From Eledone cirrhosa (lineage: Eukaryota), in contig OZ024760.1 of assembly GCA_964016885.1 (NCBI GenBank), positions 12,152,001 through 12,216,000 of the forward strand: DNA of 64,000 nt, given 5' to 3'. Position numbers and translations under genes: made by a program. The notes beneath the pieces are model-generated. The model was not told the DNA's origin. It worked only from the letters and a program-made list of their open reading frames with translations, and searched no databases. Position 1 is the first letter of the stretch, and each line of letters opens with the position of its first letter. Below, piece after piece: positions 31,615 to 53,529 of the stretch.

Positions 31615-31864
31615 TGTGTGTGATAGCTCACACTTATGCAGGTTTAGATGGCCTCCTTCAAGGTATATCTCGGGGGTGTCTTGGGTAATTTAATGATAGG
31701 GATCCCAGTCCTATCATCTCATTTCTACAGCTGAGTAAACTGGAGCAACGTGAAATAAAGTGTCTTGCTCAAAGAAACAACACATCACCTGGGTGCGAGA
31801 ATTGAACTCTCAACCTTTCGATTGCAAGCCCAATGCTCTAACCACTAAGCCATGCACCTTCATA
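31615..31864 (-). mobile_element. tRNA-derived SINE family B nested in a family A SINE (other copies 8615-8868, 12845-12960, 32840-33063, 47840-47995)
   Basis: A-box tggcttagtggttagagc, B-box gagttcaattctc, body tgagcaagacactttatttcac. TSD agtaatg at 31608-31614 and 31865-31871. Confidence 0.85.
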
Positions 31865-32644: not shown

Positions 32645-33648
32645 GTATTTATCATATCTCACTAATCTACTTTACATATCCTGTTAGGGGCTGTTGTGTG
32701 TTTCGTCATCGTCACCACGTTCATCTTCTCATGTTGGTATGAGTTTGGCCAGGATGTTCTTAGACAATGTTTTACATCCAGACTCCCTTCCTGACACCAA
32801 CCCCTTTTAGTCGCCGCTTACAACACATATGGTGTACTTATTCTATGCAGGTTTAGCTGGCCTCCTCCAAGGTATATCTCGTTGGAGGTGTCTTGGGTAA
32901 TTTAATGATAGGGACCTCAGTCCTGTCATCTCATTTCTACAGCTGAGTAAACTGGAGCAACGTGAAATAAAGTGTCTTGCTCAAGGAAACAACACATCAC
33001 CCGGTCTGAGAATTGAACTCACAACCTTTCGATTGCAAGCCCAATGCTCTAACCACTAAGCCATCATATATATACATATTGATATATTGACAGCTGATGC
33101 CCCTCATAATGTCAATCATATTACACCGAGACCATTTCCATGGCACCAGCACTACTAGCTTCATGTCGATACCATTCAAAGCAAGCAGTGATGTTTGTTT
33201 ATGTCCTGTGTAAACTATACATCCCACAGCTAACCTACTTGATGAAGATGAGAGGTATATATATATATATATATATATCTGTATGTGTGTGTGTATATAT
33301 ATATTTTTATATATATACACACACACACACACACATAATCTTTATCAAGCCTCTTCGGATTTTGGTCTTCATAATTATTAATACGGTGGAGGGTCGGACG
33401 CCATGCTTTCCAGCAAAGAGTTACGGCCCTTTATGGTCTGAGTTCAAATCCCGCCGAGGTTAACTTTGCCTTTCATTCTTACGGGGTTGATAAAGTACCA
33501 GTAATACACTGGGATAATTGCTGGCCTTGTGCCAAAAGTAGAAACAATTATTACTATATATATATATTTATAAGTAATGAAATTTCCGTTGGAAACAGAA
33601 AAGGTCATAGAAGTGAAGAGTGCTCTATGTAAGTATCAGAGCAAAATT

Positions 33649-35230: not shown

Positions 35231-35382
35231 TAAACATCTTAAATAATGATTTGTTTCAAAGATATTTTCTCCCAAAACATCAGATGATGTTTTGACTTAA
35301 TTCTTGTGAATTGTTATTACACGGAGTTCTTGCCAATTCCTTTGACATCTGTTTTAAAGTTTCTCGGCTTCTCTTGTTTCAG

Positions 35383-35645
35383 GTTTGAATTGGATGAAGC
35401 ACAGGTTGACAATATGACTGTCTATGTTCCACAACCTCCTGAACAATTTCTAAAACAAATTCCTCAGTCAAGGTTCATTGAGTGCAACAGTACACGTGCC
35501 AGCAAGTTTTCGACTATTTACGGAATAGACAACTCCGAGGCAAGCCAGAAGTTCCAGAGAAAAGCCCGCCAGGTGTTGGCTAAATGCAAACAACTTTTAG
35601 GCAGCTTGGAAATCAGGTTTTGGCTCAGTAGTGGAACATGTTTAG
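35383..35645 (+). CDS. FKTN: Fukutin coding exon 5 (FELDEAQVD...SRFIEC...FWLSSGTCLG)
   Basis: ttgtttcag| acceptor, G|gtaaat donor, SRFIEC and FWLSSGTCLG hallmark motifs. Confidence 0.95.
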
Positions 35646-35799
35646 GTAAATTGTTCTATTTTTCTTGTCATATTATCATCATGTATCTTTTAACTTTAAC
35701 TTCTTATTGAGTCACTACCCCACACCCATCAAATGTTGCACACAGGGCCTTGCCTGGAGTGTTAATGTTTAACTATTTCATTACTATATTTCTAATGAA

Positions 35800-39255: not shown

Positions 39256-40582
39256 GTAAGTTTTTTTTGTGAATTTAAAATTCAATATAGCTTAATAAAA
39301 TAAAATTGAAGGACTTAGTCCACACTGTATGATGGTTGTGCTGGTGACACTACAAAAATCACTGACTCCACATTGTAAGTTATTAGTGGTGGCACCACCA
39401 AACAAGCTCCTGGTACACATTGAAGGGAATACAGTCATAGAAAACGAATCTATAATTGAATTGTATAATCATGAAGGGTCTTTGGAGTAACGTTGTTCAA
39501 TAGAGTCACTCCAGGTAGAGTCGCTACTATCCGAATTTAGAAATGACAGCTCCGATACTATGGGCATGTAGTTAGAATGTCTCATGAAAGAATCGCTGGA
39601 CAGATTTTATGGAGAAAACCAACCGGCAGGAGACCCAGGGGTAGACCCTGTGCAAGATGGTTGGATAACATCCAAGAGCTTAGCTGGTCTCACTCGGGAA
39701 TCTAGCCGGATCAGTTGGAGATGGTTGCTTCTGACAGGACCCACTGGGAGGAGTGTTTGCCCCCACAACCCTCTCAGCCTGAAATTAAAAAAAAACCAGA
39801 AAATATTTGAAAATGTTTTTTTTTTTAATTGAACTGTTTATAGTATCTTTATTTCTGGATATATCATTGTGAATATTTGCGGTATTAAAGTAAAGACTTA
39901 AAAATTTAATGTGATGCAGTCATAGTGCTGTTTTATATTTTTCAAGAATGTCTTGCTAATGTGGTTTCTCTGAGGTCAACTTTGCTTTTCATCCATATAA
40001 GGTCAATAAAAGAGTCTAATTTCCCTCTATATTTTTTCTTACTTCCTTTCTGCCACTCTCTCTATCCTTCAATGGAAGACCTGGAGAGGATTACCACATA
40101 TATATAACGGTCATTTTGGAAGCCTTCTTTCTTCTGATGGAGTAGCATCCGAAAAGTTAAGACCCTCTTCCTGCTATATCAAGCGTTAACCTAATATATC
40201 GCTTCCATATACTGTACCGATTGTGTTGTTATTTCTGTTTACCCTTTACACACATATATATATATGTATGTATGCCCAGACGAACTCGTTTTTCTCACTC
40301 TTTAATGTAAAGTGTGCACTTTGCTTTCCTTTTGATTAGTATCTTAATGAAACTAATTTAAAGCATTGAGTGAGTGGGAAATCAATGAAAGGTATATTGA
40401 TCCAATCTGATGACTTTGTTCCAGTGTCATACCTTTTGTAGTCCACAGTGGGGGCTGCTCTCTAAACCTCTTCCATTCTATCCTTTTTGTAGCTGTTATA
40501 AATTAGAAATATGTATTGTAGCATACCAGCGATCCACATTATTTGATATTTGCATACAATGGACATTCTTTTGTTTTTTTAG

Positions 40583-40796
40583 ATACATATTTCCTAAATT
40601 TACTCTCTGCTGGAGTGAATTTTTAGATTTGTGGATCCGAGTTCCATGTGACACGGAAGCATATATAGCAGCAAATTATGGTAAAGATTGGTTCCAACCA
40701 ATCAAAGAATGGGATTGGAAGAAAAGTCCTTCAAATGTTCATGAAAATGGAGTCTGGCCTGTCAATGAATGGGATACTGTAATTCAAACTTTTTAA
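40583..40796 (+). CDS. FKTN: Fukutin terminal exon ([13 protein letters not shown]...ANYGKDW...[10 protein letters not shown]...[13 protein letters not shown])
   Basis: ttttttag| acceptor, TAA at 40794-40796, AATAAA at ~40822 and ~40986. The eight exons sum to 1374 nt = 457 aa + stop. Confidence 0.95.
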
Positions 40797-42695: not shown

Positions 42696-43490
42696 TACAG
42701 GGTGCCGACGACATCTGTTCGCAATTTTCAACTGCTAATTTTATGCAAATTTTTTTACTTCCGTTGTCACTCTTGTCTTCATAAAAACAGTGACTATATT
42801 TCCATTATTTATTTTCAGAATAATTGATTATGAATAATTTTGAACCTCTAAATTTGTGGAAGAAACACGGAGTTATTCTTTGAATCCGCGCCGGGAGGAC
42901 AAATAAGGAAATTTCAAACTTTCTCAGCAACAGCAGGAGAACAGTGTCTCATCCAAAGACGTGCCCAGAGTCATGCAGACAAAGTTTCCAGCGACAACAT
43001 TGGTCTTAGGTGTCGTCAGCAGTCAAGGTGACGTCTTGCCACCTCACTTCTTCCCTGAGGGCCTCAAGCTGAACACCAATGGCTACATCCGCGTTGTGAG
43101 CGAGGTAGTAAAGCCCTGGATCGACCAGATAGCTGCTGGTAGGCCGTACGTGTGGCAGCAAGACTCAGCACCCTGCCATACCATCCAAGCCTGGCTGTCA
43201 GAGAACTTCATCGACCACACTTCACCCGACATCTGGCCTCCCAGCTCGCCTGACTGCAACCCCCTCGACTTCTTTGTGTGGGGTGCAGTGGAAAAAGACA
43301 CCAACAGATCTAGCTGCAATACGAAAGACGATCTGAAGGCCAGGATCACAAGTGCCTTTAGGGGCCTAAGTCGGGGGACATTGACGAAGGCCTGTAGCCG
43401 GTTCCGAAGCCAATGGCGGGTTTATCGAGTGAGATCGAAAGAACAAGTCATGGCGACAAACTGACCCAAGTTTGATAAATATATCTTGCA
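42696..43490 (+). pseudogene. Internally deleted Tc1/mariner-superfamily (maT/DD37D-like) transposon
   Basis: YVWQQDSAPCH...WLSENF...WPPSSPDCNPLDFFVWG in ORF 42961-43464. Left end TACAGGGTG at 42696. Confidence 0.85.
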
Positions 43491-43833
43491 TTTAGGCAGT
43501 ATTGGTAGAGGGTCGGACACCATGCTTTCCAGCATAGTTACGTCCCTTTACGATCTGAGTTCAAATCCCGCCGAGGTTGACTTTGCCTTTCATCCTTACG
43601 GGGTCGATAAAATAAAGTACCAGTAATGCACTGGGTATTTGCTGGCCTTGTGCCTAAAGTAGAAACAATTATTAAGAATGAATAAAAAACACTATTTTAA
43701 CATTTTATTTTGAAGGGGAAATAACCCATAAAAAGGGATTTGAACGAATTATCTTTCTTCGTTAATCATTATGCCAATTGCTTTACCACTGAAAGAAAAC
43801 TGTAATTCGAATATACTACGTACGATATGGTCA

Positions 43834-43925: not shown

Positions 43926-44639
43926 ATTAGAAATAAGATAAATTGAGCGGATGGGTGGGCTATATATATATATTCTGATGGAAAGTGGGAAAACTCGACG
44001 TAAGGAAGCTGTTAGGACAACAAAATGCCGTTGGGTAAAATATTACCTCGAGGGACAGAGATTAGCGGCTCGATGTGAGTTGACTGGAAGGAAGAGAAGA
44101 TAGGATGGAGGAAATAGAATGTATGAGAGTGAAGAGGTCACAAACATGAAAATATGCTCTCCAGATCTCAACCTTCTGCAGTTTCGACGAATTAATGAGA
44201 TTACTGCGAGAAATAGAAGGCTCGTAACGGAGAAATAAATATCTTTGTTCATATAATGTTTGTGTTGGGTTAGAGAGATGGAGTGGGTCTGATCGGCCCC
44301 ATGTCGTCGCAAGAATATTGGCGTCAATAGAACTGGCCTGTAGAAGGAAAAGATGGGGAACAGTGAGAAAGAATACACTCTTTCTAAGTCATCTTAGCAC
44401 TATATACACACTTTCTAAGTCATCTCAATACTATATACACACTTTCTAAGTCATCTTAGCACTATATACACTCTTTCTAACTCATTTTAGCACTATATAC
44501 ACTCTTTCTAACTCATTTTAGCACTATATACACACTTTCTAAGTCATCTTAGCACTATATACACACTTTCTAATATAACTCAAATCTCTATGACATTCTC
44601 TTATCTCTCTATAAACCTCTTCTGTAGATCTTTATTCTT

Positions 44640-44763
44640 TTTTCGGCGCATGCGTGCTTTAGTAAAATAAATTAAATGGCCGCCCGAAGAACTTCATGTT
44701 TTCCAACGTGAATAAAAAAAAAACGTAAAAAATTTGGATTTTACTAATTTTATGGAGGTAAGT
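44640..44763 (+). promoter_or_regulatory. Candidate Pol II promoter/first exon module (left copy)
   Basis: GCGCATGCG (NRF1-like) 44646-44654, AAATGGCCGCC (YY1-like) 44674-44684, donor GAG|gtaagt at 44757/8. CpG-containing patch in AT-rich DNA. Confidence 0.45.
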
Positions 44764-46095
44764 AAAACTTTTTTTTATGTTGATCAGTTTTATTAAGACA
44801 TTTCCCTCCATGTCAGAAATAATTATTTAAACATTAGTTTTGTTTAGCTTCTGTCACACCCTACATTCTAATCTAATACAACATACCTCTCCCACAAATA
44901 ATGTATTCTTTAGATTATGTAATATATCCTCGTATTTTGTAATCAGTGTTAACTAGATATTGCTTTTAACCAACGTAACATAGAACAAGATTTTTCAAAG
45001 ACCGTATATTCCATATAGATTCTATTTCGACACCTTCATAAAGATTTTGTTGGGGGGTCATTTACATTCTCAGTTTCTTTCTTGAATAAAAAACGTAAAA
45101 AATTTGGATTTTACTTATTTTACGGAGGTAAAGTAAAACTTTATTTTATGTTGATCAGTTTTATTAAAACATTTTCTGTTTATTTCCCTCCATAATGTCA
45201 GAAATAATTATTTAAACATTAGTTTTGTTTAGCTTCTGTCACACCTTTACATTCTAATCTAATACAACACACCTCTCATACAGTCTTAGTTTCTTTATTC
45301 AGAAACTTCATTTACAGTTCCCCCCTTTAGAGATTTACATAGTTGTAGACACTTCATCTACATTCTTAGTTTCTTTAGTGTTACCCCTGTAGGAAAAGGT
45401 TTTCTTGTTTCCTCTATTTAAATGTATATATAATAAAAGACAAAATAGTTTTGTTTAGCTTCTGTCACACCTTACATTCAAATGTAATACAACACACTCC
45501 CCCACAAATAGTTTATTCTTTAGATTGGTAAATAATATATCCTCGTATTTTGTAATCAGAGGTTAACTAGATATCGTTTTTACTTTTAACCTACATAACA
45601 TAGAACCATTTGCATTCTTAGTTTTGGGTCTCTTGCTCAGTCAGCGATTAATTGGAGAAAAAATATAAACGAAATGAATGGAGGTAATTCGTTCGGAATA
45701 GAGATTTTCATAAGGAAATTGTATATGTCTATATGTGTCTTCCTCATAAATGTAGCGGTCCTGGCGTCAGTACGGAGGTAAGTAATCTTTAATTATTCAT
45801 TGGAGAAAAAAATATAAACGAAATGAATGGAGGTAATTCGTTCGGAATAGAGATTTTCATAAGGAAATTGTTAGTGCATTAGACGATGTTTTTAATGAAT
45901 ATAATTGCATAATTTATAGAGAAAAAAAAAGGTTCAGAGGTCGAATCCCTCATCGTCATAATACCACCAATGCGCTAATAATTTTCTTGTAAAAATATCT
46001 TTACTCAGAACCCCAAATTACCTCCCTTCGTTTCGTTTATATTTTTTTTAAACAAAAATTGTGCAAAGTACCTATAAGTATGACTATTTAACTCA

Positions 46096-46260
46096 GTAGA
46101 ATTGCGGCCTTCGAGGTGGCGTGCGAGCTGCGTCTCAGACTACCAGTCAAGGTGACTGACGTTCGATTCGTAGTGGCGTGCGACTGCTAAAAGGGCCTGA
46201 GACTGTCTGGGCCGGTACATAGAGACTGGCCCGTCTCAGACCACCTCGGAGAATGATTTT
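46096..46260 (+). ncRNA. Candidate Pol III-type structured ncRNA (copy L)
   Basis: TATA at 46073, GTAGAATTGCGGC at 46096, B-box-like GTTCGATTC at 46161, terminal stem 46110-46119/46241-46250, 3' hairpin 46197-46239, TTTT at 46257-46260. Confidence 0.45.
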
Positions 46261-46324
46261 GCTAAAAAAAACTTCGATTATCTCCCCTTGGATTTTACCT
46301 CCCTTGATTTTAAGAATTCATTTT

Positions 46325-47085
46325 GATTTTTCGACTTTTCATATAGATTCATTTTGGACACTTTAATAACACACGTTTCATATACATTTTTTTTTTTTCG
46401 ACTTTTCAAAAACACGTTTCATATACATTTTTTTTTTTCGACTTTTCAAAAACACACGTTTTATATAGATTATTTTTTCGACTTTTCAAAAACACGCGTT
46501 TCATATAGATTATTTTTTCGACTTTTCAAAAACACACGTTTTATATAGATTATTTTTTCGACTTTTCAAAAACACATGTTTCATATAGATTATTTTTTCG
46601 ACTTTTCAAAAACACACGCTTCATATACATTTAGACACTTCATCTACATTCTTAGATTTTTTTTTTTTTTTAGACACTTCATTTACATTCTTATTCTTTT
46701 TAGACACTTCATCTACATTCTTAGATTCTTTTTAGACACTTCATCTACATTCTTAGATTTTTTTTTTTTTTAGACACATCTACATTCTTAAATTTTTTTT
46801 TTTTTTTTAGACACTTCATCTACATTCTTAGATTTTTTTTTTTTTAGACACTTCATCTACATTCTTAGATTTTTTTTTTTTTTTTAGACACTTCATCTAC
46901 ATTCTTAGATTTTTTTTTTTTTAGACACTTCATCTACATTCTTAGATTCTTTTTTTTTCAGACACTTCATCTACATTCTTAGATTTTTTTTTTTCTTTAG
47001 ACACTTCATCTACATTCTTAGATTCTTTTTTTTAGACACTTCATCTACATTTTTAGATTTCTTTTAGACACTTCACTTAGATTCT
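46325..47085. repeat. Two adjacent arrays: 40-bp (ttttttcgacttttcaaaaacacacgtttcatatagatta) then ttagacacttcatctacattcttaga-T(n)
   Basis: Periodicity visible at 46441/46481/46521/46561. Variable poly-T spacer in the second array. Confidence 0.88.
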
Positions 47086-47499
47086 TTTTCACATTATTCA
47101 AGGGAAACAACTCATGTTTTTACAGAGTTACCTCCCTTGAATAATAAACCCCCCCCCCCATCTAAGGGAAACAACTCGTTTTTTAAAGAGTTACCTCCCT
47201 TGGATAATAAAAAAAAAAACTCCCCTCTCCTGAAAGAGTTACTTTCGTTTAATGAGAAAAATATGACTTATTGACTTTGAAAGAGTTAATTCCTGTACTA
47301 AAATGTATTCCGAAGGAGGTTTAAGACAGTCGGAATTTCTTTCGAAGACAAGAGCCATTTATATGTCTAGAAGCTTTCTTTTGTCAAAATATTAACACAA
47401 CTAGTATATAATATGTAATAATTTCTTTATTGACAGAGGCTAAAAGCCAATCTATTTTTGTCAAATAAACTGAACACAATTCGTAAATATGTAAACATT

Positions 47500-47620
47500 T
47501 TTTTTTTTATTAACAGACACTTCTTCACTGTTCAGGAAACTTGGACTTGTAAATACTTTCACAATCAAAACCTTCTTTCAGTGGTTGCAGCATGTGATAT
47601 GATTGCAGCTGGGGGGACAT
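47500..47620 (-). other. Orphan 3'-terminal exon (strong acceptor plus polyA signal)
   Basis: - strand ttttttcttatttcatttttcttacag|ATGTCC... with AATAAA at 47511-47506. Confidence 0.45.
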
Positions 47621-48404
47621 CTGTAAGAAAAATGAAATAAGAAAAAACTATGAAAGTCATTTATGTACATTGTCAATAAAAAAAATTAAACTTTCTAAAA
47701 TTCTTCCAGCTTTGTCTTTTACTATAATATATAATAATATACACATAAGGATATATATTTAGAACTTTCTTTCAAATTATTTCTTACAATATATATATAT
47801 ATGCGTATAAAAACATGTATAAATATTTACATGTGTATATGGAGGCACATGGCTTAGTCATTAGAGCATTGGCCTTGCAATCGAAAAGTTGTGAGTTCAA
47901 TTCTCAGACTGGGTGGTTTTTTCCTTGAGCAAGACACTTTATTTCACATTGCTCCAGTTTACTCAGCTGTAGAAATGAGATGATAGAGACCCCAGTCCAC
48001 GGCAAAAAAAAGCACCCAGCTGTAAATAAGGTTGGTGATAGGAAGGGCATCCAGCTGTAGAAATCGAGCCAGAATCAGTTCCCGTCCCACCCTTGCAAGC
48101 AGGGAAAGCGGACGTAAAATGATGATGATGATATATATAGTGAAATTCCGTTATAAATTATATATGTACATATACAGAAACAAGAAAACCTGTTCCTACG
48201 TTGGGTTTATCAAATGTCAAAGCTACTTATAGGGATGTGGTCCAGGTTGTCGCTAGAGGTGTCACAACATACACAGATGAAGGGCCACTCCCACGTTGGG
48301 TTGTCAAGCTGGGAAGGGAAGCACCTTAAGTCCACGACAGTGAGGTTCACGGAAAACTAGATGTGGAGTTGAGGGACGAGTGAAAAGATGCCAGTGTATA
48401 TAAA

Positions 48405-51322
48405 AAAACGAGTTAGAAAGTGTGTATATAGTGTTGAGACGAGTTAGAAAGTGTGTATATAGTGTTGAGACGAGTTAGAAAGTGTGTATATAGTGTTGAG
48501 ATGAGTTAGAAAGTATGTATATAGTATTAAGATGAGTTAGAAAGTGTGTATATAGTATTAAGATGAGTTAGAAAGTATGTATATAGTATTAAGATGAGAT
48601 AGAAAGTGTGTATATAGTGTGTATAAAATGTGTATATAGTGTTAAAATGAGTTAGAAAGTGTGTATATAGTATTAAGATGAGTTAGAAAGTGTGTATATA
48701 GTGTTAAGATGAGTTAGAAAGTGTGTATATAGTATTGAGATGACTTAGAAAGTGTGTATATAGTGTTAAGAGTTAGAAAGTGTGTATATAGTATTAAGAT
48801 GAGTTAGAAAGTATGTATATAGTATTAAGATGAGATAGAAAGTGTGTATAAAATGTGTATATAGTGTTAAAATGAGTTAGAAAGTGTGTATATAGTGTTA
48901 AGATGAGTTAGAAAGTGTGTATATAGTATTAAGATGAGTTAGAAAGTGTGTATATAGTGTTAAGATGAGTTAGAAAGTGTGTATATAGTATTAAGATGAG
49001 TTAGAAAGTGTGTATATAGTGTTAAGATGAGTTAGAAAGTGTGTATATAGTATTAAGATGAGTTAGAAAGTGTGTATATAGTATTAAGATGAGTTAGAAA
49101 GTGTGTATATAGTATTAAGATGAGTTAGAAAGTGTGTATATAGTGTTAAGATGAGTTAGAAAGTGTGTATATAGTATTAAGATGAGTTAGAAAGTGTGTA
49201 TATAGTGTTAAGATGAGTTAGAAAGTGTGTATATAGTATTAAGATGAGTTAGAAAGTATGTATATAGTATTAAGATGAGATAGAAAGTGTGTATAAAGTG
49301 TGTATATAGTGTTAAAATGACTTAGAAAGTGTGTATATAGTGTTAAGATGAGTTAGAAAGTGTGTATATAGTGTTAAGATGAGTTAGAAAGTATGTATAT
49401 AGTGTTAAGAGGAGTTAGAAAGTGTGTATATAGTATTAAGATGAGTTAGAAAGTGTGTATATAGTATTAAGATGAGTTAGAAAGTGTGTATATAGTATTA
49501 AGATGAGTTAGAAAGTGTGTATATAGTATTAAGATGAGTTAGAAAGTATGTATATAGTATTAAGATGAGTTAGAAAGTGTGTATATAGTGTTAAGATGAG
49601 TTAGAAAGTGTGTATATAGTATTAAGATGAGATAGAAAGTGTGTATAAAATGTGTATATAGTGTTAAAATGAGTTAGAAAGTGTGTATATAGTGTTAAGA
49701 TGAGTTAGAAAGTGTGTATATAGTATTAAGATGAGTTAGAAAGTGTGTATATAGTGTTAAGATGAGTTAGAAAGTGTGTATATAGTATTAAGATGAGTTA
49801 GAAAGTGTGTATATAGTATTAAGATGAGTTAGAAAGTGTGTATATAGTATTAAGATGAGTTAGAAAGTGTGTATATAGTGTTAAGATGAGTTAGAAAGTG
49901 TGTATATAGTATTAAGATGAGTTAGAAAGTATGTATATAGTATTAAGATGAGATAGAAAGTGTGTATAAAATGTGTATATAGTGTTAAAATGAGTTAGAA
50001 AGTGTGTATATAGTGTTAAGATGAGTTAGAAAGTGTGTATATAGTATTAAGATGAGTTAGAAAGTATGTATATAGTATTAAGATGAGATAGAAAGTGTGT
50101 ATAAAATGTGTATATAGTGTTAAAATGAGTTAGAAAGTGTGTATATAGTGTTAAGATGAGTTAGAAAGTGTGTATATAGTATTAAGATGAGTTAGAAAGT
50201 GTGTATATAGTATTAAGATGAGTTAGAAAGTGTGTATATAGTATTAAGATGAGTTAGAAAGTGTGTATATAGTGTTAAGATGAGTTAGAAAGTGTGTATA
50301 TAGTATTAAGATGAGTTAGAAAGTATGTATATAGTGTTAAGATGAGTTAGAAAGTGTGTATATAGTATTAAGATGAGTTAGAAAGTATGTATATAGTATT
50401 AAGATGAGTTAGAAAGTGTGTATATAGTGTTAAGATGAGTTAGAAAGTGTGTATATAGTGTTAAAATGACTTAGAAAGTGTGTATATAGTGTTAAGATGA
50501 GTTAGAAAGTGTGTATATAGTGTTAAGATGAGTTAGAAAGTATGTATATAGTGTTAAGAGGAGTTAGAAAGTGTGTATATAGTGTTAAGATGAGTTAGAA
50601 AGTGTGTATATAGTGTTAAGAGGAGTTAGAAAGTGTGTATATAGTATTAAGATGAGTTAGAAAGTGTGTATATAGTATTGAGATGAGTTAGAAAGTGTGT
50701 ATATAGTATTAAGATGAGTTAGAAAGTGTGTATATAGTATTAAGATGAGTTAGAAAGTGTGTATATAGTATTAAGATGACTTAGAAAGTGTGTATATAGT
50801 GTTGAGATGAGTTAGAAAGTGTGTATATAGTGTTAAGATGAGTTAGAAAGTGTGTATATAGTATTAAGATGAGTTAGAAAGTGTGTATATAGTATTAAGA
50901 TGACTTAGAAAGTGTGTATATAGTGTTGAGATGAGTTAGAAAGTGTGTATATAGTGTTGAGATGAGTTAGAAAGTGTGTATATAGTATTAAGATGAGTTA
51001 GAAAGTGTGTATATAGTATTGAGATGAGTTAGAAAGTGTGTATATAGTATTGAGATGACTTAGAAAGTGTGTATATAGTGTTGAGATGAGTTAGAAAGTG
51101 TGTATATAGTGTTAAGACGACTTAGAAAGTGTGTATATAGTATTAAGAGGAGTTAGAAAGTGTGTATATAGTGTTAAGAGGAGTTAGAAAGTGTGTATAT
51201 AGTGCTAAGATGACATAGAAAGTGTGTATATAGTGTTAAGAGGAGTTAGAAAGTGTGTATATAGTGTTAAGATGACATAGAAAGTGTGTATATAGTGTTG
51301 AGATGACTTAGAAAGTGTGTAT
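48405..51322. repeat. ~2.9-kb 31-bp satellite. Same unit at 52050-52530 and inverted at 44375-44572.
   Basis: Unit gagttagaaagtgtgtatatagtattaagat. Confidence 0.95.
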
Positions 51323-51370
51323 AAATGCCGTTATAAATTATATATGTACATATACAATAATACATGTATG

Positions 51371-51401
<31 letters not shown>

Positions 51402-51862
51402 ACAAGAAAACCTGTTCCTACGTTGGGACTATCAAATGTAAAAGCTACTTATAGGTAATAGGGGTGTGGTCCGGGGGGCCACCAGGCAGCAGGTTGCCGT
51501 TAGAGAAGGTGTCACAACATACACAGACGAAGGGCCTACCCCCCAAGCTGGGAAGGGAAACCTGGTGACCAGCACCTTAAGTCCACGACAGTGAGGTTCA
51601 CAGATAAGGGAACACAAGATGTGGAGTTGAGGGGACGAGTGTATATAAAGAAACTAAGAATGTAAATGAGGATATTTTATTTAGCAACTTACATAATCTA
51701 AAGAATACATTATTTGTGGGAGAGGTGTGTTGTATTAGATTAGAATGTAGGGTGTGACAGAAGCTAAACAAGACTAATGTTTAAATAATTATTTCTGACA
51801 TTATGGAGGGAAATAAACAGAAAATGTCTTAATAAAACTGACCAACATAAAATAAAGTTTTA

Positions 51863-51980
51863 CTTTACCTCCATAAAATTAGTAAAATACAAATTTTTTA
51901 CGTTTTTTATTCACGTTGGAAAAGATGAAGTTCTTCGGGCGGCCATTTAATTTATTTTACTAAAGCACGCATGCGCAGAA
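51863..51980 (-). promoter_or_regulatory. Candidate Pol II promoter/first exon module (inverted right copy)
   Basis: Reverse complement of the left module: TGCGCATGCG, AAATGGCCGCC, donor GAG|gtaaag at 51869/8. Confidence 0.45.
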
Positions 51981-52749
51981 AATAGAATAAAGATCTACAG
52001 AAGAGGTTTATAGAGAGATAAGAGAATGTCAGAGAGATTTGAGTTATATTAGAAAGTGTGTATATAGTGCTAAGATGACTTAGAAAGTGTGTATATAGTG
52101 CTAAGATGAGTTAGAAAGTGTGTATATAGTGCTAAGATGACTTAGAAAGTGTGTATATAGTATTGAGATGACTTAGAAAGTGTGTATATAGTGCTAAGAT
52201 GACTTAGAAAGTGTGTATATAGTGCTAAGATGACTTAGAAAGTGTGTATATAGTGCTAAGATGAGTTAGAAAGTGTGTATATAGTGCTAAGATGACTTAG
52301 AAAGTGTGTATATAGTGTTGAGACGACTTAGAAAGTGTGTATATATAGTCTCTTGATGACTTAGTAAGAGTGTATATAGTGTTGAGACGACTTAGAAAGT
52401 GTGTATATAATGTCGAAATGTGTATAGTGTATATAATGTCGAAGTGTGTATAGTGTCGAGATGGCTTAGTATGTATGTATATAGTGTTGAGACGACTTAG
52501 TGTGTATATATAGTTGAGATGGCTTAGAAGAGGTAACACTATTTGTAAGTGTAGCTTTTTTTTAGTTTAAAAGAAAGTGTGTATATAATAACATGTATGT
52601 GTATAGAGAGAAGGTTTAGTGTCATATATTATACAGCAAAGAAAACATTACATGAAGAAATAAATATCCAAAGTGATTTTCTTTCTTAACCGGAAAATCG
52701 ATTGAGAAGAGTTATATAAAGGGGAGATAACTCTAATCAAATTTACACT

Positions 52750-52907
52750 AAAAAAATCGATTGTTCGGAGGCCAGCCTGCAAATAGTCCCAGCTTCATAA
52801 GCCAGGAAGACCTCGTAACGATTCGAACTCCAGACACATAGAATGGTCACGCCATACATAAGTAGACGACAAAGTCGGAACAGCTACGCGCATCGCCGCA
52901 ATTCTAC
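52750..52907 (-). ncRNA. Candidate Pol III-type structured ncRNA (copy R)
   Basis: TATA at 52930, GTAGAATTGCGGC at 52907, B-box-like GAGTTCGAATC 52830-52820, 3' hairpin gaggtc..tcctggctt/aagctggga..ggcctc, T7 at 52756-52750. Confidence 0.45.
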
Positions 52908-53529
52908 CGACTAGAATTAGTATAATTATAGCTAACATTTTATTTATTTAAAAAAAATATATATAGAAACGGAACGAAAGCAAGATAACACGCCTCAAAA
53001 TATATTCCGTGTTAACTCACTCATTCCGTTTCTATATATAAATTAATTTAGAAACTACTAGTATTTATATATGCTGAACAATTAATATGTTAAATAAATA
53101 TGTTTCTGTAAATAAAAATGTTTATTTATCACCGGGTTTCCTTGTTAAATGTCTCTCCCTCGATAGGATACCGGTCTATCGCAGGATTAACTACTGTACT
53201 GGAGCAACACAAAACAAAGTATTTTCTTTTAAAAGAACATTTGAGTGTGTTGGCTGTTAACTACACAGGAAGAAGTATACAGCAGATTTCTTCCAGAGAA
53301 AGCTTTTCACAAAGTCCCCTATTCCATTATCTGGAGCAAATGTGACAGGCGAGGTTTTATTGGCCGTAGCAGATCCTATGAGATGTTTACATCCGTAAGC
53401 TCCTTATTTCGCCATCTGACCTGGGTTTAAATAACTAACGTTTATCATGGTTTAGATATAATATATGTAAATGATTTTATGGATACAATTTGAGTGGCCG
53501 AATCTATATATGTATGTACATATATATCA

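Follow-up and report, generated by a model that had tools for sequence, protein, structure and literature searches.

Two islands in the Eledone cirrhosa genome belong to an uncatalogued family of likely Pol III-transcribed structured RNA genes

What are the two islands that face each other in a satellite-rich part of the genome of the octopod Eledone cirrhosa? They lie in a stretch of 64,000 nt (GCA_964016885.1, contig OZ024760.1; C21:12152001-12216000, forward strand), here called the window. A sequence-only reading had taken them for two selected, structured RNA genes of RNA polymerase III (Pol III) type rather than decaying copies of a short interspersed element (SINE). Both islands, copies A and B (Table 1), were present and homologous, and most of the motifs listed for them stood where they had been placed. 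Each carries an upstream TTCGTT(T/C)CGTTT plus T tract, a TATAA(G/T)TA box that starts 23 nt before the G of the 13-mer GTAGAATTGCGGC, a B-box motif, a T run and, at 21 and 26 nt from the first T of that run, TTATCTCCCCTT. The 13-mer, called the leader below, is identical in both and has two exact occurrences in the window, where 0.58 would be expected even with two mismatches. The order of TGGCGTG, described as common, differed: in A it is found before the tgcg..agctg block and after the B box, in B between these. We consider it likely that the islands are members of an uncatalogued octopod family of about 200 copies, probably transcribed by Pol III into folded RNAs of 155-200 nt and probably spread by multi-kilobase duplication. 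The copies are numerous, share flanks, hold a fixed spacing between TATA-like box and leader and diverge in a pair-preserving manner, and copy B carries deletions. The family, which has no match in Rfam or in the literature searched, is real and, as judged from these sequences, selected.

A genome-wide count of relatives, as the sequence-only reading had proposed, was carried out in the 3.0-Gb genome. The 13-mer gave 193 matches, against 8 for the reversed control. The combined pattern of TATA-like box, spacer and leader gave 226 matches against 11 for the control; chance seems to account for about 20 of the first 100 listed. The family is made up of about 200 gene-like copies, mostly on the small chromosomes C12-C27 with a few on C6-C10 and C14. 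Forty loci were taken from the list of 13-mer matches; 33 were members of A, B or C type, one was of D type and six were chance or SINE matches. Deleted copies (10 of 31 sequences binned as A and 22 of 38 binned as B) were left out of the alignments, which therefore describe intact members only. Subfamilies A1, A2, B1, B2 and B3 and one divergent C copy could be told apart. With the leader removed, alignments among the bodies of A, B1 and C still score higher than every shuffle. When 21 A copies were used to build a covariance model, it detected C (42 bits) and the B types (16-41 bits). The same model matched none of the seven supplied U6, 7SK, SRP and vault loci, nor the window's copy B. On the minus strand, 1.5 kb downstream of the C-type copy, a weak Rfam match to an HDV-like ribozyme was seen (32.7 bits, below cut-off). 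The D type, with 110 genome matches against 0 for the control, forms tandem arrays of non-coding units of 6.2-7.2 kb on C22. The leader is present in it, as is a TA-rich box at -23, and its A and B boxes are better than those of the other types. No homology was detectable for its body, and it folds weakly (z -0.59). We regard it as no more than a probable relative.

The promoter was analyzed in 92 distinct promoter-plus-body sequences, a set that includes one chance SINE match. In 86 of these, the TATA-like box lies exactly at -23 from the leader. Among the 21 A copies, mean identity was 0.91 in the TATA-like box, 0.62 in the spacer, 0.98 in the leader region, 0.84 in the body and 0.63-0.67 in the flanks. 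Thus the spacing between two conserved elements is kept while the letters of the spacer drift. A consensus B box, GWTCRANNC, was present in 59 of the 92 sequences, both window copies included. The A box, near +12, is close to consensus in the D type and degenerate at the matching offset in A, B and C. Four T residues (T4) followed the closing stem within 22 nt in 79 of 80 intact copies, against a frequency of 0.15 for random 24-nt stretches. Transcription of the family by Pol III is likely. The start site may be bracketed by comparison. The U6 genes of this genome have their TATA at -28, and with this distance the start would fall 5-8 nt into the 13-mer. Rodent 4.5SH and 4.5SI RNAs have a TATA-like box at -31/-24, according to the passages of PMC10137851 considered here, and a start at the G at +9 would place the box of the family at the same position. 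We infer a start between +1 and +9 of the 13-mer.

A further element, TTAYYTCCCTT, has a single occurrence in 70 kb of background. It is present, however, upstream of three U6 loci (-265, -271 and -288) and recurs around family genes. Being common to the U6 upstream regions, it is probably a site for a host factor. The vicinity of the 7SK and SRP starts of this genome did not contain it; a variant precedes a vault-like locus. Inspection of the sequence upstream of copies A and B did not reveal the U6-type proximal element, ATGC(A/T)AAT, at its place near -75, and only the distal motif is common to family genes and U6. Together, TTAYYTCCCTT (-265 to -288) and ATGC(A/T)AAT appear to be the distal and proximal promoter elements of small nuclear RNA genes in this animal. 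A tandem array of U6 is also present on C19.

Intact copies share one predicted fold, consisting of a closing stem, a long irregular hairpin with the B box, a bulged 3' hairpin and the oligo-T. In the 21 A sequences, a structure of 49 pairs had 94% of its cells paired, and six of the 49 pairs were changed on both sides; the shuffle test of this structure is inflated by the relatedness of the A sequences. RNAalifold, unprompted, recovered 38 pairs in A, comprising the closing stem, the lower long hairpin and the 3' hairpin. In the B types it found the long hairpin and the upper 3' hairpin but, owing to gaps in that part of the alignment, missed the closing stem. A1 (CG-GC-AT-GC), A2 (CG-GT-CG-GC), B1 (CG-GC-CG-GC) and B3 (GT-TA-GC-CG) all retain the closing stem, and its pair types differ among them at four successive positions; the rows of B2 and C, which require a bulge, are out of register there. 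Substitutions were counted pairwise along a minimum spanning tree of the existing A sequences, which is cruder than tree-based event counting. Differences per site were 0.79 in stems versus 1.40 in unpaired positions (p 3e-4). The pair survives six double changes and is broken by one. Single-sided stem changes keep the pair in 31 of 62 cases, which is significant for kappa 2 (p 2.5e-4) to 4. Changes between Watson-Crick and G-U pairs outnumbered those between Watson-Crick and A-C (31 versus 8, p 1.5e-4), and this excess argues that the plus strand of A is the folded strand. Ten of 15 representatives fold at z -2.9 or lower; those without such a fold are B1b, A1b, B2b, D and the window's B.

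The proposal that both islands keep their fold held for copy A, which folds better than shuffles (z -3.79), and failed for copy B, which does not (z +0.42). Comparison with intact B-type copies shows two stretches missing from copy B: about 11 nt behind the leader and some 28 nt close to the 3' end. Its fold is weak because the 5' strand of the closing stem and these 3' nucleotides are lost. The same deletion explains why the 3' hairpins of the two islands had seemed unrelated: the intact B-type 3' hairpin aligns with that of A. From its deletions, copy B is probably a pseudogene.

How did the family spread? All 30 loci fetched by a motif of the A body, which has 53 matches in the genome, keep the upstream flank, and 27 of them have an intact promoter. 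Retention of the flank in every case indicates spread as DNA duplicons and not as a SINE. A block that begins at about -360 to -395 is common to young A1 copies from six chromosomes and is followed by satellites and further blocks. The ends of this block are ragged in the 11-27 copies compared: left ends run into several shared extensions and right ends branch into different shared blocks. Between copies, identity is higher for gene and promoter (0.95-0.99) than for the downstream blocks of the same unit (0.82-0.94). Convergent pairs were found in 11 of 33 sampled members and are often the arms of kilobase inverted duplications. The window is such a case, with 44373-44950 and 51690-52409 as arms. 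The facing orientation of the islands is a common by-product of inverted duplication. Terminal inverted repeats of a single transposon were rejected as an explanation for the arms, the ends of which vary. A block with GCGCATGCG and ATGGCCGCC (44645-44685 and 51935-51975 of the window) travels with the duplicons. We take these two motifs to resemble NRF1 and YY1 sites.

Known RNA classes were considered as candidates, and Rfam scans and ARAGORN gave no match at the islands. A tRNA was rejected, as there is neither a cloverleaf nor an RF00005 match at the islands, and a vault RNA, as RF00006 does not match there and the vault-family matches of the genome lie elsewhere. These include 14 matches above cut-off at C3:221183987-221251257, which have TATA boxes and T runs and are candidate mollusc vault RNA genes. 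For 7SK there was no RF00100 match, and the single 7SK locus of the genome, on C2, has no similarity to the family. The U6 loci are separate, and the family is without their proximal element. An SRP/Alu origin had been suggested by the shared GTGGCGTGC; local alignment to the SRP RNA of this genome was no better than shuffles (p 0.19-0.97) and there was no model match. The SRP RNA genes themselves form a tandem array of about 21 copies at C12:42105147-42134272. Rfam scanning of the window gave no Y RNA match (RF00019); the Y RNA of the genome itself was not searched. Scans of relatives gave only simple-repeat microRNA noise and one weak match away from the gene. A spliced-leader RNA was rejected by inspection, there being no conserved donor or Sm site. 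An endogenous virus was rejected as well, as the promoter pattern is absent from viral contigs and no viral-type open reading frames were seen. Metagenomes gave a single chance match, in unrelated coding-like DNA. No protein gene was recognised inside pairs or D-type units, and no zinc-finger arrays were seen in the part of the fetched loci that was examined for them. Literature text containing the leader sequence came only from unrelated papers, and nothing relevant was found on Pol III in cephalopods or octopus, judged by title and opening of the abstract. Six family motifs were absent from the searched supplements of PMC9699675; one file fell outside this search, and a match in a microRNA table is possible.

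Several described systems resemble the family in part. Vault RNA shares panhandle closure, a hybrid promoter and clustered copies; the vault-family loci of this genome differ in that they are about 90 nt long, carry a box motif at the 3' end and are unmatched by the family covariance model. The ends of adenovirus VA RNA and of the EBERs of Epstein-Barr virus are paired in the folded RNA. Their promoters combine internal boxes with an upstream TATA-like element, as stated in the passages of PMC7279448 used here. The family is like them in its predicted size of about 160 nt, its predicted paired ends, this promoter type and the oligo-T end. It is unlike them in that its copies have no viral genes nearby, Rfam does not match it and viral contigs do not contain its promoter pattern. 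Rodent 4.5SH is a lineage-restricted small RNA with A and B boxes plus a TATA-like box and with hundreds of gene copies, each in a multi-kilobase repeat (PMC10137851, in the same passages). The family would similarly be lineage-restricted, it is multicopy within multi-kilobase repeats, and its TATA-like box would have the same position with a start at +9. In contrast to 4.5SH, which has 94 nt and clearly derives from B1/7SL, it has predicted RNAs of 155-200 nt, several divergent subfamilies and no ancestor that we found. Moreover, 4.5SH occupies a single tandem unit, whereas the family sits in dispersed or inverted duplicons and only its D-type arrays are tandem (6.2-7.2 kb). The snaR RNAs of apes, as portrayed in the parts of PMC3045588 drawn on here, are structured and fast-evolving Pol III RNAs with a B box and an oligo-U end, spread by segmental duplication in mosaic duplicons. 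The family probably shares these features, its structure, transcription and oligo-U end being predicted. Unlike snaR, which is about 117 nt long, Alu-derived, has an oligo-A tract and for which expression and NF90 binding have been shown, it is known from DNA and likened by description.

The genes might instead be cargo or a structural part of a non-autonomous rolling-circle transposon of Helentron/HINE kind, their fold and motifs serving DNA transposition or their RNA serving the element. Short inverted repeats of AAGGGAGA(C/T)AACTC flank the internal 40/37-bp satellite arrays, which recalls the subTIR/IR/central-repeat plan of HINEs, as far as the passages of PMC7492417 and PMC4067079 describe it; the arrangement fits this plan partly, and the block common to young A1 copies on six chromosomes would suit it. 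However, the copies compared have no defined termini and no insertion at TT, their left ends continuing and their right ends branching. The most conserved part is the promoter-bearing structured gene and not the downstream blocks, the upstream motif is also found at U6, and RNA accounts better than DNA hairpins for the fixed TATA spacing and the G-U bias. Only LINE-like (long interspersed element) and repeat coding pieces were seen among the frames listed. We regard a transposon part as unlikely; rolling-circle transposition may have been the vehicle of spread. Decaying SINE copies, or neutral passengers of macrosatellite-like duplications without a selected RNA, would account for the many deleted or truncated copies (the window's B included) and for the position of the units amid satellites on repeat-rich small chromosomes, and gene conversion could homogenise copies without selection. 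Such an origin is nevertheless very unlikely, as none of 30 copies is flank-free, the A-type 3' motif has only 53 matches, the window's SINE copies are not significantly similar to the family, and stem conservation, double changes, G-U excess and CpG retention (observed/expected 1.08 vs 0.44) oppose it.

We consider it highly improbable that the islands are Pol II promoters for long non-coding transcripts through the satellites, with convergent pairs giving double-stranded RNA. An initiator-like TCAGT (46093-46097 in copy A) or TTAGT precedes the leader in most copies, the downstream DNA is strongly strand-skewed and convergent partners exist, but TATA and initiator would be no more than 22 nt apart, a closed fold with T4 at its end is left unexplained, and two thirds of sampled members have no convergent partner within about 8 kb. 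Action of a Pol III RNA by base pairing through its invariant 5' leader, for example with antisense copies of the tRNA-derived SINE in the manner of 4.5SH or as a processed small-RNA strand, differs from the reading preferred here in function only, and we think it quite unlikely. No part is more conserved than the leader, which even D-type genes carry. A segment of an older SINE subfamily is similar to it, and pairing of the antisense SINE with the first 18 nt of the RNA gives -18 to -21 kcal/mol where the shuffled mean is near -13. This comparison is post hoc, though, and the best shuffles reach similar energies; whole-body similarity to the SINE is not significant in six of seven representatives; and the leader may be conserved as a start-site element of the DNA, with 8 of its 13 nt perhaps not transcribed. 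The SINE in question is abundant (window 43500-43690), and its older subfamily carries TAGAGTTACGGCCCTT, near-identical to the family leader, a weak post hoc lead. Another lead of this sort, also weak and post hoc, is a 9-nt complementarity of AGAATTGCG in the leader to the 3' end of the genome's miR-219 5p arm; it has no seed site, and most D-type copies break it.

Some observations weigh against a Pol III-transcribed, selected family. The box reads CATAA instead of TATAA in 34 of the 92 sequences, 33 have no consensus B box, those of the youngest A subfamily included, and the A and B types carry a degenerate A box. The terminator statistic is inflated by a T-rich downstream flank, and several D-type arrays are without T4. 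Pairing of the leader with the 3' end, which is possible in most subfamilies, favours a start only 23-25 nt past TATA, shorter than the 28 nt of U6. Pair retention in single-sided stem changes loses significance for kappa of 8 or more; the loops suggest a kappa of about 1.7. Furthermore, all evidence is DNA sequence of a single genome, and the copies are mutually related, so that counts are not independent. Fixed promoter spacing, covariation, the G-U strand bias and the lack of flank-free copies support selected Pol III-type RNA genes at the level of the family. For the window, the original proposal has to be narrowed, as its pair represents two of about 200 members and B is a deleted derivative.

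In the mechanism that we propose, TBP/TFIIIB would be placed by the TATA-like box, aided by the upstream motif shared with U6 and by the internal A and B boxes. Pol III would start within the leader and stop at the T run. The 5' and 3' ends of the RNA would then pair, leaving a long, irregular, G-U-rich hairpin and the bulged 3' hairpin. Copy A would be active, and copy B a dead or crippled derivative. If transcribed, the RNA could be bound by double-stranded-RNA-binding proteins and act as their ligand or decoy, in the manner of snaR and NF90. This is the least certain step of the mechanism, and we offer it tentatively, from analogy and the long imperfect helices.

Features of the two islands and their surroundings are listed in Table 1. 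The fukutin exons of the window are at 35288-35710 and 40401-40796, and the islands lie about 5 kb beyond the last fukutin-like exon, amid satellites. A fukutin exon has 85% identity to proteins of Octopus vulgaris and Argonauta hians; no other match exceeds 76%. By inspection, 42907-43464 appears to be what is left of a mariner-type transposase frame. A second SINE family is represented by tRNA-like heads at 31790-31859, 33006-33063 and 47835-48130, two of which exceed the Rfam tRNA cut-off.

Table 1. Positions in the window of features in and around copies A and B
Feature	Position	Strand	Remark
Copy A, intact predicted RNA gene, A subfamily	46096-46260	+	start placed between 46096 and 46104
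Copy A, invariant leader	46096-46108	+	13-mer GTAGAATTGCGGC
Copy A, TATA-like box TATAAGTA	46073-46080	+	23 nt before leader; -31/-24 if start is the G at 46104
Copy A, upstream element TTACCTCCCTT plus TCGTTTCGTTT	46018-46038	+	TTAYYTCCCTT motif, also upstream of three U6 loci
Inverted partner of copy A upstream element	45814-45838	-	imperfect inverted repeat with 46016-46041
Copy A, degenerate A-box-like TGGCGTGCGAG	46117-46127	+	presumed same offset as near-consensus A box of D-type relatives
Copy A, B box GTTCGATTC	46161-46169	+	3' strand of long hairpin
Copy A, T4 run, predicted Pol III terminator	46257-46260	+	directly past closing stem
Two TTAYCTCCCYT motif copies downstream of copy A	46278-46305	+	
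40-bp and 37-bp satellite arrays, then short inverted repeats of one motif	46337-47201	+	part of the duplicon, travelling with A-type genes
Long 31-bp satellite array between genes A and B	48410-51323	-	
31-bp satellite and unique block downstream of B	51690-52409	-	inverted copy of 44373-44950, upstream of A
Copy B, downstream TTATCTCCCCTT	52719-52730	-	
Copy B, B1-subfamily gene, two internal deletions	52750-52907	-	closing stem and half of 3' hairpin gone
Copy B, B box GTTCGAATC	52820-52828	-	
Copy B, TATA-like box TATAATTA	52923-52930	-	
Copy B, upstream element TTATCTTGCT, TTCGTTCCGTTT	52967-52988	-	

RNA-level regulation is a central open question in octopods. The lineage-specific multicopy Pol III RNAs that we found described, 4.5SH and snaR, are found in mammals and descend from known SINEs. 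RNAs of the family, 155-200 nt long and probably lacking poly(A), would fall between microRNA and mRNA libraries and be missed. A wider scheme, in which the A to D types form a superfamily of about 300 octopod Pol III genes whose abundant G-U-rich RNAs tune double-stranded-RNA enzymes such as ADAR, or whose invariant 5' leader guides against the commonest SINE, would be an invertebrate counterpart of 4.5SH and snaR in a lineage known for massive RNA editing; this scheme appears unlikely. If the reading as a Pol III-transcribed family is true, an octopod family that is larger, structurally selected and without a traceable ancestor would be a new class of abundant RNA.

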